DNA from: Leptolyngbya sp. BL-A-14
GTDB taxonomy: Bacteria > Cyanobacteriota > Cyanobacteriia > Leptolyngbyales > Leptolyngbyaceae
Direction: 5' to 3'
Assembly: GCA_041937185.1 (NCBI GenBank)
Contig: CP166621.1
Span: 2,260,571 to 2,324,570, forward strand
Length of the DNA stretch: 64,000 nt
Part shown: positions 27,974 to 33,687 of the stretch, in pieces
How the letters are laid out: every line of letters begins with the position of its first letter
Position numbering within the stretch: position 1 is the first letter of the stretch
Translations under genes and position numbers: made by a program
Notes under the pieces: generated by a model
Database searches by the model: none
Seen by the model: only the letters and a program-made list of their open reading frames with translations
Told to the model about the DNA's origin: nothing

Positions 27974-28137
27974 CCCGTTTGTGAAGCAATCTCAGGATCG
28001 TGAGGAGCAGGTTAAACCTTAGACAACCCTGCACGTAGTGTCGATCGGCTTACTTCCAGTCATTTCTATTTCTGACATGACTGATCTATTCATTCAAATA
28101 GCGGAACTAGTCGATCGCGCCCCGTTCTTTAAGCCAC

Positions 28138-28205
28138 ATCTGCTAAAGCGTGATCGTTGTTTTGCCAGCACCATTCGATTGTTTGGCAACTCTGAAAGCT
28201 AGCAC
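28138..28205. repeat. About 70-bp direct repeat, left copy (CATCTGCTAAAGCGYGATCGTTGTTTTGCCARCACYATTCGAT...)
   Basis: About 85% identical by eye to 29012..29080, in the same orientation; the two copies bracket the Uma2 gene. Confidence 0.7.
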
Positions 28206-28229
28206 TAGCAATTTGGGCGATCAACAATT

Positions 28230-28856
28230 TTATTTGACCGCTCTTAACACTTGCTCAGCCGTCAGTTTTAAGCTTGGAAAGGTGAGTGAAACGATCGGCT
28301 GATTACCTCGAAGCTGTTGAATCTCATACTCCCCATTCACTAACGTACAGATAGAGAGGGTAGGTTGTTTAGGTTTCCCAATGTGTCGAGTTCCGCCTAA
28401 GCCTGCATAGTCTGCAATCCAATATTCGGGAATGCCTAAAACTGCGTAATCTTCAACCTTACGGGCATAATCATTTTGCCAGTTGCTACTCACAACTTCC
28501 GCTACAAATTTAATCGAACTGCCCAGCGTGAGAATTGACTGATCAGACCAGAGCGGCTCTTTGGCTAGTTCATCGCGATCGACAACTAGAACATCAGGGC
28601 GAAAGGCGGTCATGCCACTGTTAGAAGGGCGCAAGAGTCCCCGTTGGAGAACGAACCAAGGTAAATCTGTTCCGTCGATTTGGACGCAGAGCTTTGCAGT
28701 AATGAAGGCTGCTACCTCTTCATGCAAGCCTGTTGGTTCCAAGTCGAACACCTCTCCATCGATCAATTCGTAGCGGTTGTCGCTGCCATAACAGGCGAGA
28801 AATTCGTCAAAGCTAAGTGGCTGCTGTTGTATTGGCTGGTTGATTGCAATAGTCAT
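28230..28856 (-). CDS. Uma2-family (DUF820) endonuclease
   Basis: ...FRPDVLVVDRDE...FVAEVVS...GIPEYWIADY... core. Confidence 0.8.
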   Translation of the reverse strand: MTIAINQPIQQQPLSFDEFLACYGSDNRYELIDGEVFDLEPTGLHEEVAAFITAKLCVQIDGTDLPWFVLQRGLLRPSNSGMTAFRPDVLVVDRDELAKEPLWSDQSILTLGSSIKFVAEVVSSNWQNDYARKVEDYAVLGIPEYWIADYAGLGGTRHIGKPKQPTLSICTLVNGEYEIQQLRGNQPIVSLTFPSLKLTAEQVLRAVK

Positions 28857-29011
28857 CGGTCAACTTAGCCCGATCAATATCTTCACAGCCTACCAAATAG
28901 AAGCAGTGAGGGACACGTAACGCATTAATGTTATTGGACGAGTGCCCTAATTGCATATAGGAATCAATGCGATCGCACTCGCTCATCGATCGCACCCTAT
29001 CACTTCAACCG

Positions 29012-29080
29012 CATCTGCTAAAGCGCGATCGTTGTTTTGCCAACACTATTCGATCTTTGGGCAGATTCGAAGCTTTTAGT
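29012..29080. repeat. About 70-bp direct repeat, right copy
   Basis: See 28138..28205. Confidence 0.7.
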
Positions 29081-29164
29081 GCCAAAGGTTTGAGCGATCG
29101 TAGCCACGGATAGCCAATTGTAGTCGGCACTCGCAAACAGAGACGGGACAGCATACACCCTACG

Positions 29165-31157: not shown

Positions 31158-32843
31158 ATGCTTTTACCCAGATTCTATTTTCTAAAAGCCGATGAACAGC
31201 TTCTGGTCGAAGACTTTACGCAACAGTTTGTTGTTAACGGTCCTACCTTCTTCTTAGCAAGACCGCTCCTCAAAATCACTCGTCGTAAAGCTTTAACGCT
31301 GGGACCCACTGACTATGTTCGCATTCGTAATCGCTTCACGGGTGAACTTCGCAATCAAAGGGGGCCAGGACTGCACTTTTTGGATGCCAATGAGGAGGTT
31401 GCCAAAAAGCTGACAGCACTACCCTTATCGCGCAACCAGTATGTAAAAATCATCAATCAGCAAACGGCTGTCACTCGCATGGTGCGTGGTGAAACCCTTG
31501 TCTACCTCGACCCAAGTGAAGAACTACTGGGAGGCGTACAAGAGGGAATTAATATTGACGATGAGACGGCTGTCTTGGTGCGGACGATCGAAACGGGTCA
31601 GTTGCAGCTCATCACAGAACCTCAGGTGTTCTTTCCAGACGCCAATCAGACGATTGAGGCGCGGCGAAAGCCTGTCTTGCTCAAGCAAAATCAGTACGTC
31701 AAAGTTATCGATAAAAGTACAGGTGCCATTCGCGTGGTGCGAGGCGAATGCCGCTTTTACCCAGAACCAACGGAAGAATTGTTAGGCAGCATTCAGGATG
31801 GCGTGAACGTAGATGAACATACCGCTGTCCTGATCCGCGATACAGAATCGGCGCAACTTGATTTAGTCACAGCACCCCAGGTGTTTATTCCAGGCCCGAC
31901 GCAGGAGGTTGTGCGCTTACAGCAACGCATTCTGCTGGAAGACCATGAGGCCGTAGTGATTAAAGATCGACTGGGACAGTACCAGATCCGTCGTGGCACC
32001 GATCCAGAGCGTGCCTTCTTTCTGGCTCCGTATGCTCAACTTGTCGAATTCTGCTGGTCAAGAGGTGTGCATAAAGATAAGCGTGACCTAACGTTCACCC
32101 ACATTGATTCTCGTCCCAAGTTCATGTCCTATGAATTTGAGGTGCGTACACAAGATAATGTCGAGCTTGTGCTGGCGATTACGTTGTTCTGGCAGATTAT
32201 GCAGATTGAAGCCATGATCCGTACGACAGACGATGCCACCGGAGATGTGTGTGCACACGCCCGCAGCAGTATTATTCAGGCGGTTTCTCAAACGACACTA
32301 GAGCGCTTTCTGTCTAGCTTTAACGATCTCGTCCAAGAGGCCGTGCTCAATCCTGGTGATGGCTTTTACCAAAATAGAGGGGTGCAAATTCACTCAACAG
32401 AAGTGCGCTCTATTGCTTGTAAAGATCCAGAAACGCAACGGATTCTGATGGAAATTATTCAGGAGACGACAAATCGGCTCAACCAACTCCAAAAACAAGA
32501 AAGCAGTAATGAAGTTCAACTGAGACAACTCGAAGGTGACATTGCCGCAGAACAAATGAAAGGACAGCTTTTGGACTTACGGCAGGAACATGCGAAAACT
32601 GAGGCAACGACGCAAGGTGCAGCGGAAGCCATTCGAGTGAAGGCATTTCTTGAAGGTCTGGGTGAGCAGTTGTCGTCTGAGGACAAACTTTTCTTGTTTA
32701 ATTTGCTGCGGAAACAGGATGCGATCGCCGCTCTTAGCGCAGGGACGGCACAACTGTACTTCACCCCAGCAGATGTGAATTTAAGCATTGAAGCACGACC
32801 GCTCTCAGGTGGAGCATCCCTTCAAGGGATTGAGCCAGCATGA
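31158..32843 (+). CDS. Major vault protein (MVP)-like protein: tandem vault repeats, MVP shoulder (SPFH-like) domain and a coiled-coil cap-helix region
   Basis: 561 aa. There are internally duplicated ~85-aa units (YVKIINQQTAVTRMVRGETLVYLDPSEELLGGVQEGINIDDETAVLVRTIETGQLQLITEPQVFFP versus YVKVIDKSTGAIRVVRGECRFYPEPTEELLGSIQDGVNVDEHTAVLIRDTESAQLDLVTAPQVFIP), each resembling two ~42-aa vault repeats (V-x-D-x-x-T-G-x-x-R-x-x-x-G-P-x-x-F-x-P). The block DLTFTHIDSRPKF...ATGDVCAHARSSIIQAVSQTTLERFLSSFNDLV aligns with the rat MVP shoulder segment [35 protein letters not shown]. The C-terminal ~150 aa are Q/E/L-rich coiled coil, like the cap helix. Confidence 0.6.
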   Translation: MLLPRFYFLKADEQLLVEDFTQQFVVNGPTFFLARPLLKITRRKALTLGPTDYVRIRNRFTGELRNQRGPGLHFLDANEEVAKKLTALPLSRNQYVKIINQQTAVTRMVRGETLVYLDPSEELLGGVQEGINIDDETAVLVRTIETGQLQLITEPQVFFPDANQTIEARRKPVLLKQNQYVKVIDKSTGAIRVVRGECRFYPEPTEELLGSIQDGVNVDEHTAVLIRDTESAQLDLVTAPQVFIPGPTQEVVRLQQRILLEDHEAVVIKDRLGQYQIRRGTDPERAFFLAPYAQLVEFCWSRGVHKDKRDLTFTHIDSRPKFMSYEFEVRTQDNVELVLAITLFWQIMQIEAMIRTTDDATGDVCAHARSSIIQAVSQTTLERFLSSFNDLVQEAVLNPGDGFYQNRGVQIHSTEVRSIACKDPETQRILMEIIQETTNRLNQLQKQESSNEVQLRQLEGDIAAEQMKGQLLDLRQEHAKTEATTQGAAEAIRVKAFLEGLGEQLSSEDKLFLFNLLRKQDAIAALSAGTAQLYFTPADVNLSIEARPLSGGASLQGIEPA

Positions 32844-32844
32844 G

Positions 32845-32885
32845 TAAGCAAAAGGCAAGAGGCAGAGGGCAGAAGGCAGAAGGTA
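32845..32885. repeat. GGCAGAR heptamer array
   Basis: aaggcaagaggcagagggcagaaggcagaagg. Confidence 0.8.
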
Positions 32886-32996
32886 AACCCTCGCTTATCA
32901 CAGCGTTGATCGCGACAGGGTATCCTAACTAACCTGCGTACCAGCTATGGAGGACTTACAACGGTTACTGATTGAGTAAGCCACAGTCCTGTCAAT

Positions 32997-33057
32997 AAGG
33001 GTGTGGGGGATAGGGTGTAGGGTGTGGTGAATGCAAATGAAAACGGCTGTAAAAGCG
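32997..33057 (-). repeat. Dispersed element, long form, reverse orientation (CACACCCTACACC core plus GTGAATGCAAATGAAAACGGCTGTAAAA)
   Basis: Its reverse complement matches 9706..9765 over ~55 bp. Confidence 0.7.
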
Positions 33058-33129
33058 TTGTGTAGACTGGTTTTCAGCAGTTAATCCATCCATCGCCACT
33101 CAAGATTGCACATCTATTGTGACTGGTGC

Positions 33130-33687
33130 TTAAGGAAAGAGTTGATCTAGCGCGATCGCAAGCTCTGGAAAGACGCTCGCACTCAGGGTATCCGCTTCAC
33201 TCAAAACAACCTCCTGCGCGTAACCATCATCCTGCGGATCACGAAACACGTACACCTGTCGGGTATTCACATCCAAAATCCAGTACTCCAAAACTCCCGC
33301 TTTGGCATAGAGGGGTGCCTTGATCGTGCGATCGTCTTTCAGAGACGTATCGGCAACCTCAATCAGCCAGAAAACATCGTTTGGTGTGGGATGGCGATCG
33401 GAGTATTCCTTTGCATCAAAGCGAACGATCGCAATGTCGGGTTCTGGCTCAGAGTTAGGCTTCAGCGTAACCGGAAGTTGCATCCGTATATAAGCACGTT
33501 CAGCTAAAAGCCGATCCAGGTAACGAACCGTTCGTTGTGTCGTTGAGGCGTGAGGCGGTAACTGAGGACTCATCCTAACAATCTGTCCTTGTAAAAGCTC
33601 CACACGATCGCTCGGTGTCAAAATGCCCGCTTCAATCATGCGGTGGTATTCTTCAACCGTCCAGAGGCGAACCTTTGTAGAAGTCAT
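33130..33687 (-). CDS. Uma2-family (DUF820) endonuclease
   Basis: ...EPEPDIAIVRFD...WLIEVADTS...GVLEYWILD... Confidence 0.8.
   Translation of the reverse strand: MTSTKVRLWTVEEYHRMIEAGILTPSDRVELLQGQIVRMSPQLPPHASTTQRTVRYLDRLLAERAYIRMQLPVTLKPNSEPEPDIAIVRFDAKEYSDRHPTPNDVFWLIEVADTSLKDDRTIKAPLYAKAGVLEYWILDVNTRQVYVFRDPQDDGYAQEVVLSEADTLSASVFPELAIALDQLFP

Follow-up and report, generated by a model that had tools for sequence, protein, structure and literature searches.

The window analysed here is a 64-kb stretch of DNA from Leptolyngbya sp. BL-A-14, a metagenome-assembled genome (MAG) in which it lies on a 7.19-Mb contig. Downstream of cphA it carries a run of small genes and repeats that the original prediction had singled out as an accessory island, namely: two genes of the Uma2 family (Uma2a and Uma2b), the first of them bracketed by repeats; an AT-rich gene for a small protein with two putative transmembrane segments (2TM); an IS5-family insertion sequence (IS); a 21-nt periodic array; a 56-aa open reading frame (ORF56); and a gene whose product resembles major vault protein (MVP). 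Both this MVP-like protein and the 2TM protein have 100% identical counterparts among the proteins of the BL-A-14 genome. As set out below, the segment between cphA and the next core gene is indeed accessory and variable, and it has probably been put together piecemeal at a breakpoint rather than received as a unit.

Gene order and composition downstream of cphA

The segment is flanked by core genes, as had been proposed. To its left are cphB (23853-24821) and cphA (25226-27973), both on the plus strand. To its right is an SDR gene (33850-34626, minus strand; identified by Pfam), which forms the right edge of the variable segment and is followed on the plus strand by HxlR (34762-35112) and alaS (35197-37839). 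The assignments of cphB, cphA and alaS are NCBIfam equivalogs.

Gene order was compared among 80 loci around close cphA homologues in species-representative genomes. Between 15 and 28 kb, the window is gene-for-gene collinear with Stenomitos rutilans, S. frigidus, Tildeniella nuda, Leptolyngbya ES-bin-22, Lyngbya HA4199-MV5 and others. This collinearity reaches the cphA stop codon, or its short 3′ flank, in loci L007, L008, L009, L010, L012, L014 and L015. In S. frigidus (L009), the similarity runs from within cphA to position 28087, inside the cphA 3′ flank (27974-28105) that forms the left edge of the variable segment.

Downstream of cphA, the content is different in every relative examined, and the 28.1-33.8 kb block is absent from this position in all clade relatives examined. 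In T. nuda (L008), SDR and HxlR lie 291 nt after cphA, and the part of the window that holds these two genes (33850-35122) is collinear with L008 13037-14315 at 83% nucleotide identity. In Kovacikia (L016), it is alaS that follows cphA, at a distance of 266 nt. Since cphA adjoins SDR-HxlR in Tildeniella and alaS in Kovacikia, window 28088-33849 is lineage-specific relative to both. The expectation of a lineage-specific accessory segment is thus borne out, with synteny broken at the cphA stop codon and all relatives differing beyond it.

The relatives that are closest by cphA identity and have downstream sequence (L007, L014 and L009) carry unrelated genes after cphA, so that the 3′ end of cphA is a general breakpoint and not a single insertion site. 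At the equivalent positions, relatives have Uma2 genes, HicAB, DUF433, a DUF5615 ORF, ParE fragments and, in S. frigidus (L009), a DNA methylase gene. These are the same class of small selfish or defence-type genes.

The mean GC content of the window is 0.514 (standard deviation 0.038). By element, it is 0.491 for the MVP-like gene, 0.474 for Uma2a, 0.504 for Uma2b, 0.557 for the IS and 0.373 for the 2TM gene. The 2TM gene is the only clear outlier and contains the lowest-GC 400-bp stretch of the 64 kb (0.3675, ~3.9 standard deviations below the mean); the IS is mildly deviant (slightly GC-rich). The change of composition that had been described across 5 kb is therefore real for the 2TM patch (~0.4 kb) but does not extend to the MVP-like and Uma2 genes, which are near the window mean. 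The second-lowest GC patch (about 0.40-0.43) is found at 7800-8400, within a long minus-strand ORF (6993-8999).

Arrays of short tandemly repeated repetitive (STRR) sequences had also been noted after the MVP-like gene. Two such heptamer arrays are present, one of GCAGAAG (5.1 units, 32848-32883) and one of AGGGTGT (4.0 units, 32998-33025), both made of tandem heptanucleotide units in intergenic DNA, as STRR sequences are. Period-7 arrays, of which there are at least 18, are spread throughout the window, and the GCAGAAG unit is found again, shifted or as a variant, at 5452, 6848 and 51280. Intergenic STRR-like heptamer arrays and G-rich tandem arrays of 9, 18, 27 or 45 nt were observed at 1802-1930, 4421-4480, 5452-5620, 14375-14412 and 51280-51480, among other places. 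Because STRR arrays and Uma2 genes both occur window-wide, neither marks an island.

Features that commonly accompany a transferred island were looked for as well. The 64 kb contain no tRNA or tmRNA genes. The ORFs of the block include no integrase, and none was found in ten further ORFs scanned (eight at 38.6-49.2 kb and two at 10.4-11.8 kb). There are no direct repeats flanking the segment as a whole, the sole direct repeats being those that bracket the single gene Uma2a. Promoter and terminator scans gave counts no higher than in shuffled sequences.

Boundary repeats and the genes between them

The direct repeats of ~70 bp reported on either side of Uma2a (28138-28205 and 29012-29080) are real, with their limits corrected to 28111-28188 and 28986-29063 (78 nt, 81% identity, spacing 875 nt). 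They belong to a family of imperfect palindromes of 160-200 nt. Copy 1 (28106-28222, plus strand; nhmmer E = 1.4e-22) is degenerate, lacks the tail and ends 8 nt from the stop codon of Uma2a. Copy 2 (28970-29160, plus strand; E = 1.2e-49 for 28970-29127) is full length and has the tail, which ends at the stop codon of the 2TM gene. A third, tail-only relic, located inside ORF56 (~30925-30990), aligns with the tails of five other copies. A profile search of 1.57 Mb in all gave 13 matches, distributed over the window and loci L008, L009, L010 and L097, and none in the other ~85 cyanobacterial loci; the count leaves out three matches in L098, a duplicate of L008. A metagenome scan with the repeat core returned only the two T. 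nuda contigs.

The palindrome can be folded into a proposed 21-pair imperfect hairpin, in which 90.6% of cells are paired across 12 copies, compared to 23-46% in slid controls. A structured RNA or DNA element was considered and rejected, the inverted repeat being conserved but without covariation support. As judged from the aligned copies, the palindrome is a conserved inverted repeat whose structure is only proposed. An Rfam scan of 27.9-35.3 kb, with E up to 1, gave no matches; thus the boundary repeats and the 21-nt array (see below) are not a known RNA.

The genes enclosed by the repeats vary among relatives. In L008, two repeat copies bracket HicA-HicB. Positions 1-3000 of L097 (JAESFZ010000024.1, taken as a second T. 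nuda contig) hold an array of small cassettes with boundary repeats, in the order: repeat; DUF3368(PIN), UPF0175 and a 67-aa ORF; repeat; a 97-aa ORF and the Uma2a orthologue; and three tandem repeats, after which comes an ExbB-like gene. The repeat spacings in this array are 1139 and 1177 nt. The window and L008 share the same order of repeat, cassette, repeat, membrane-protein cassette and 21-nt array with different genes in the slots, L008 having HicAB in place of Uma2a and two other membrane-protein ORFs in place of the 2TM gene. With the IS removed, the interval from copy 2 to the relic is ~850 bp, which is cassette-sized, and holds the 2TM gene and the 21-nt array. Such a combination of the same boundaries with different slot genes suggests cassette replacement at conserved boundaries.

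The arrangement resembles both the VCR/attC arrays of Vibrio and REP/BIME repeats in consisting of clade-specific imperfect palindromes at gene 3′ ends. As in Vibrio integron arrays, the cassettes are ~1 kb long and rich in toxin-antitoxin modules, and homologous slots hold different cassettes, here HicAB, DUF3368/UPF0175 and Uma2a. It differs from these systems in having no attC core boxes, neither RYYYAAC (R'') nor GTTRRRY (R') being found at the palindrome ends when both strands of the aligned copies were read, in the lack of any integrase or RAYT transposase among what was seen, and in its 13 copies only, from the window and four clade loci. One could speculate that the repeats serve as recombination sites for a cassette-exchange system, so far undescribed, in the Stenomitos/Tildeniella/BL-A-14 clade, with an integron-like layout and no attC boxes, which would shuffle ~1-kb toxin-antitoxin, Uma2 and membrane-effector cassettes among a few chromosomal arrays, Uma2a and the 2TM gene being two such cassettes. 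We offer this as a rather unlikely idea.

Uma2a (28230-28856, minus strand) encodes a 208-aa PD-(D/E)XK nuclease of the Uma2 family (Pfam PF05685, E = 3.2e-30), and Uma2b (33130-33687, minus strand) a 185-aa protein of the same family (E = 5e-39), in agreement with the prediction of one Uma2 gene at the left of the segment and another after the MVP-like gene. The two score 105.3 and 134 bits, respectively, against a PF05685 cut-off of 27, covering profile positions 1-171 of 172, and both match the PADLOC candidate defence family PDC-S03 (E = 3.4e-85 for Uma2a and 3.6e-19 for Uma2b). The family is multi-copy, with four genes in the 64-kb window, or about one per 16 kb. The other two are at 11160-11828 and 37860-38459 (Uma2c, plus strand), and one directly abuts the alaS stop codon. 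We know of no demonstrated function for the Uma2 family.

Both genes appear to have a long history in this group. Repeat copy 1 together with Uma2a (window 28111-28913) is 83.4% identical over 823 nt to L097 1944-2763, on a T. nuda contig other than that of its cphA locus. Core genes of the same two organisms are 77-84% identical at the nucleotide level. Since the Uma2a cassette has diverged as much as the core genes, it would be as old as the clade, with its location changed. As for Uma2b, the 266-bp cphA-alaS spacer of Kovacikia contains a 75-nt remnant (L016 5167-5238) that is 83% identical to the interior of Uma2b (33446-33520) and in the same orientation. The remnant points to Uma2b as an old resident of the locus, mostly deleted in Kovacikia.

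Other Uma2 genes of the clade were found in notable settings. In L008, the left edge of the 21-nt array is present in two copies that have diverged (70% over 70 nt), with a Uma2 gene (16848-17486) in between. When L008 16634-17562 is aligned with the window, window 30556-30620 is the undisrupted site, making this a presence/absence polymorphism with a flanking duplication of 55-70 nt. In S. frigidus (L009 12824-13609) and Leptolyngbya ES-bin-22 (L010 11840-12625), genes for 261-aa Uma2 proteins come directly after cphA. These proteins have a C-terminal AEAEARQ-type 21-nt repeat built from the GCAGAAG heptamer, which is coding in their C-termini and non-coding in the STRR arrays of the window. 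The possibility that Uma2 genes are in general mobile units with long target duplications was rejected: in a comparison of 19 Uma2 genes with 483 size-matched ORFs from 1.57 Mb, flanking direct repeats of at least 40 bits were not significantly enriched. Strong profile matches and multiple copies are what Uma2a shares with its family, whereas its bracketing by repeats is not general for Uma2 genes.

The 2TM gene (29165-29569, minus strand; GC at third codon positions 0.26) is an orphan coding for 134 aa, and the AT-rich patch that had been assigned to it is confirmed. Its predicted structure (pLDDT 88.5) has helices at residues 14-50, 58-77, 80-102 and 109-123. One hydrophobic segment is strong (Kyte-Doolittle mean 2.5 over 19 residues, for starts at residues 22-35), and a second, at 58-77, is borderline by hand calculation (~1.4). 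Family matches were obtained to DUF4231 (E = 8e-5, 23.5 bits, cut-off 24.7), SLATT_4 (E = 4.8e-6, 26.5 bits, cut-off 55) and SLATT_1 (E = 1.3e-5, 25.2 bits, cut-off 41), as well as to the N-terminus of PADLOC ThsA2, also below cut-off. The protein resembles its best matches, SLATT_4, SLATT_1, DUF4231 and the ThsA2 N-terminus, as a small helical protein whose hydrophobic helices, one strong and one borderline, precede amphipathic ones, but its scores are all below the cut-offs and it stands alone, without fusion to SMODS, SLOG, TIR or reverse transcriptase domains. By analogy, it would at best be a SLATT-type small membrane effector.

An exhaustive phmmer search gave ~200 cluster representatives (E<1e-3), of which most are proteins of 130-220 aa that stand alone, and only 5 of 42 family members touch DUF4231. 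Three homologues (L087, L090 and L092) are found in three unrelated neighbourhoods. Counting the window, no conserved partner, nucleotide-signal generator, reverse transcriptase or sensor lies beside the gene in the four contexts. Homology to the closest locus (L087) stops 25 nt upstream of the ATG. A conserved upstream partner was considered and discarded, as the 216-aa ORF that precedes the L087 homologue is missing from the window; the ORF for a membrane protein that occupies the equivalent slot in Tildeniella is unrelated. The low GC content of the 2TM gene makes a recent acquisition likely.

The IS (908 bp, 29610-30517, minus strand) sits 40 bp upstream of the 2TM start codon and is intact, as originally described. 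It has perfect 16-nt inverted repeats (GAGGCTGTTTGAAAAG, starting with GAG) at 29610-29625 and 30502-30517, identical at 16/16 positions, and a TTA target duplication at 29607-29609 and 30518-30520. Its full-length transposase (29644-30459, minus strand; Pfam DUF4096 and DDE_Tnp_1) matches positions 2-257 of 258 of NCBIfam transpos_IS5_3 (E = 7.5e-61, 205.9 bits, cut-off 110). It is present as a single copy in the window. The DUF4096 and DDE organization, length of ~0.9 kb, short terminal inverted repeats and 3-bp duplication are shared with known IS5-family elements, of which ISAcma43 from Acaryochloris marina is the closest named one; the transposases are only 72% identical at the amino acid level, so that the element would receive a new IS name. 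We take it to be of the IS1031/IS427 type by the ISfinder subgroup properties (GAG ends, TNA-type 3-bp duplication, ~0.9 kb). Since no more than 25 nt upstream of the ATG are homologous in the closest 2TM locus, the 2TM gene has probably been cut off from its promoter by the insertion.

Beyond the IS is the 21-nt periodic tandem array (30555-30799, with a conserved right flank to 30839), which is 85% identical over 221 nt to Tildeniella L008 17534-17754. The array had been taken for a pseudogene-like, broken heptad-repeat gene. The repeat itself is present, but not the coding signature, and the gene was rejected: it would need a frameshift, its N-terminal 90 residues are unconserved, and the comparison with Tildeniella gives no sign of purifying selection in any frame. 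Over 42 substitutions, each of the six frames has at most 8 synonymous versus at least 20 non-synonymous codons. The window and L008 do not have the same ORFs over the array. If the IS is removed, a minus-strand frame ends in a TGA that overlaps the ATG of the 2TM gene. The array is probably non-coding, or an unrecognisably decayed remnant. ORF56 (30884-31054, plus strand) had been listed as a possible gene of 56 aa. The open frame exists, but it overlaps the repeat relic and is unconserved, with no match in Pfam, NCBIfam or PADLOC and none by tblastn in 86 loci. Moreover, conservation with L094, the closest MVP-like locus, begins at 31042, so that ORF56 lies mostly outside the conserved unit, and ORF56 is absent beside the closest MVP-like homologues. 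It is probably spurious.

A short MVP-like protein

The MVP-like gene unit (31042-32843, plus strand) consists of a 116-nt conserved leader and a coding sequence (31158-32843) for 561 aa. The Pfam matches agree with its original designation, namely: MVP_shoulder (E = 3.2e-7, 30.8 bits, cut-off 25), Band_7 (E = 4.2e-7, 30.6 bits, cut-off 23.6) and Vault_3 (E = 1e-6, 29.2 bits, cut-off 28.8). An AlphaFold 2 (AF2) model built from a 60-sequence alignment (pLDDT 83.6) has ~seven five-stranded beta repeats (residues 1-295), an alpha/beta shoulder (310-421) and a 77-residue helix (424-500), followed by a second helix and a disordered tail (526-561, pLDDT below 50). When the model was searched with Foldseek, the top matches were all MVP (E from 2e-26 to 6.5e-22 for full-length chains, probability 1.0), aligned from the repeats through the helix. 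Other SPFH proteins were matched at ~1e-9, with stomatin, prohibitin and HflK/C at ~1e-9 to 1e-6. A phmmer search against PDB sequences found MVP only (E ~1e-3), aligning residues 73-509 of the query to MVP 259-746.

The protein has in common with eukaryotic MVP (rat and human; PDB 4V60, 9Z4W and 9BW5) the beta repeats, the SPFH-like shoulder, the long cap helix and its predicted solubility. It differs from it in being 561 aa rather than about 860-890 aa long, in its ~7 short (~42-aa) repeats instead of 9, in a sequence identity of 14-18%, and in its C-terminal 36 residues, which are disordered with no cap-ring region evident. None of the vPARP, TEP1 or vault RNA partners is adjacent in the contexts examined. 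With stomatin, HflK/C and flotillin it shares the SPFH/Band_7 domain. Unlike those proteins, it has beta repeats in place of an N-terminal membrane anchor and no adjacent NfeD gene. No transmembrane segment was detected, the 19-residue Kyte-Doolittle maximum being 1.48 (threshold 1.6). Going by the model, the protein is a soluble short vault-type protein and, by analogy with MVP and SPFH proteins, it probably oligomerises via its long C-terminal helix into a ring or cage.

Residues 92-176 and 177-261 (window 31431-31940) are tandem copies, 48% identical (E = 8e-31), of a duplicated 85-aa double vault repeat. Most homologues are ~460 aa long, and the protein in the window is the long form (~550 aa); the duplication probably accounts for the two classes. 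The family is large, with members in Cyanobacteria, Chloroflexota, Riflebacteria and Wallbacteria. The surroundings of the gene differ among Kamptonema, three Logan contigs, and ENA and NCBI contigs. Elsewhere, MVP-like genes at 62-87% identity are located beside ergothioneine genes, in Kamptonema and a related metagenome contig, beside Ham1/peptidase C1 genes, or beside a penicillin amidase gene. No PADLOC match was obtained for the protein. In the Logan contig L094 (SRR12113402_120141, 2.46 kb), the first and last ~28 nt are mutual reverse complements, most likely an assembly artefact.

Bacterial 'band 7' proteins with an MVP fold, such as A9AUD4 of Herpetosiphon aurantiacus, have already been noted (Daly et al. 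2013, PMC3762200). To judge from taxonomy and annotation, A9AUD4 would belong to the same family as the protein in the window, which is the long ~550-aa form with the extra 85-aa double repeat. Longer bacterial MVPs of ~820-880 aa, from Moorea, Oscillatoria, Saprospira and myxobacteria (bioRxiv 10.1101/872010), are treated in two preprints and are distinct from this short form, on which we found no experimental work in the literature.

Origin of the variable segment

Taken together, these results make it probable, at a moderate level of confidence, that window 28088-33849 is a variable region of mosaic make-up at a breakpoint, prone to recombination, immediately 3′ of cphA, formed by several independent events and not by the transfer of one island. 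The Uma2a cassette and the 21-nt array, at 83-85% identity to their Tildeniella counterparts compared to 77-84% for core genes, would be old residents that have moved and not recent imports. The layout is that of an old cassette array of repeat, Uma2a, repeat, membrane-protein gene, 21-nt array and relic, collinear with the Tildeniella array, in which recombination at or between the repeats would have swapped the cassette contents. The 2TM gene, to judge from its 37% GC, would be a recent foreign acquisition into one slot, and its product may permeabilise the membrane, by analogy with SLATT effectors. The IS5-family element later transposed into a TTA upstream of the 2TM gene, probably uncoupling it from its promoter. 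The MVP-like gene appears to be a self-contained monocistronic unit of host-like composition, and Uma2b is an older resident of the cphA-alaS interval.

Several observations weigh against this scheme. Neither SDR-HxlR nor alaS follows cphA in L007, L014 and L009, so that neither adjacency can be taken as ancestral. Cassette exchange is read from three genomes only, and neither a recombinase nor an excision product was seen, nor any empty site for the Uma2a cassette. Covariation in the proposed hairpin is no better than in shuffles. Flanking direct repeats are present at 2 of the 19 Uma2 genes and at 12 of the 483 controls (Fisher p = 0.09, Mann-Whitney p = 0.21). Finally, the 2TM protein stays below the curated cut-offs for SLATT membership, and a Foldseek search of its model against the PDB gave no significant match.

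Alternatively, the block could be ancestral at this position and have been lost or rearranged in the relatives, the window preserving a decaying ancestral region. The core-like divergence of cassette and array is in keeping with this, as is the Uma2b remnant in Kovacikia, which is direct evidence of deletion there, and the fact that every relative differs after cphA makes rearrangement general. We nonetheless think it unlikely, given that recent gains are indicated by the 2TM gene, with its GC of 0.37, and by the IS, intact and in single copy, that MVP-like genes at 82-87% protein identity occur in other contexts, and that the homologous array of Tildeniella is on the other side of SDR-HxlR.

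A functional defence island, in which the Uma2 nucleases, the SLATT-like pore protein and the MVP-like shell would act together or be co-selected against phage, has even less to recommend it and seems quite unlikely to us. The PDC-S03 matches of Uma2a and Uma2b and the SLATT-type matches of the 2TM protein speak for it, and the equivalent regions of relatives are full of toxin-antitoxin modules, with a DNA methylase gene in S. frigidus (L009). However, Uma2 genes carry little information at about one per 16 kb of window, the 2TM gene has no sensor or enzyme as a partner beside it in four contexts and is probably silenced by the IS, and the MVP-like protein has metabolic neighbours elsewhere and is without a PADLOC match.

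The original proposal of an accessory island, the likeliest site in the window of horizontally acquired or novel function, holds in so far as the region is variable and lineage-specific. That the whole 5.8 kb entered once between cphA and SDR, as a single horizontally acquired island with a coherent accessory function, is in our view very improbable. Tildeniella lacks the block between cphA and SDR, and Kovacikia lacks it between cphA and alaS; the block also includes an IS and a low-GC gene, as such an island might. On the other hand, it has no integrase, tRNA gene or island-level direct repeats, its composition is host-like except for 0.4 kb, and its components are found separately in other genomes. 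Furthermore, counterparts of the Uma2a cassette, of the repeats and of the 21-nt array are found within the clade, as diverged as core genes are, and the Uma2b remnant at the Kovacikia locus shows that part of the block is old. There is hardly any case for regarding the boundary repeats as attC sites of a sedentary chromosomal integron or of an integrase-less attC cluster (CALIN): clade-specific imperfect palindromes 0.9-1.2 kb apart that bound single, toxin-antitoxin-rich cassettes do give a Vibrio-type layout, but the palindrome ends have no R''/R' boxes, the unit of 160-200 nt exceeds typical attC sites in length, genes are not uniformly oriented with respect to the repeat, no integrase is present in the window ORFs scanned, and the hairpin is without covariation support.

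The significance of a mosaic assembled at a breakpoint is mainly corrective. Although the region is variable and accessory, what it contains is a patchwork of accessory elements ordinary for cyanobacteria, all of known kinds, and the features that look island-like (STRR arrays and Uma2 genes) are window-wide. Two by-products are of most use, the family of boundary repeats and a clear instance of the short MVP-like family of bacteria. The former provides a testable handle on the shuffling of toxin-antitoxin and Uma2 genes in filamentous cyanobacteria. The latter is a large and experimentally untouched bacterial family with the architecture of the vault shell (repeat, shoulder and cap helix) and, if it does form vault-like cages in bacteria, would bear on the origin of vaults.

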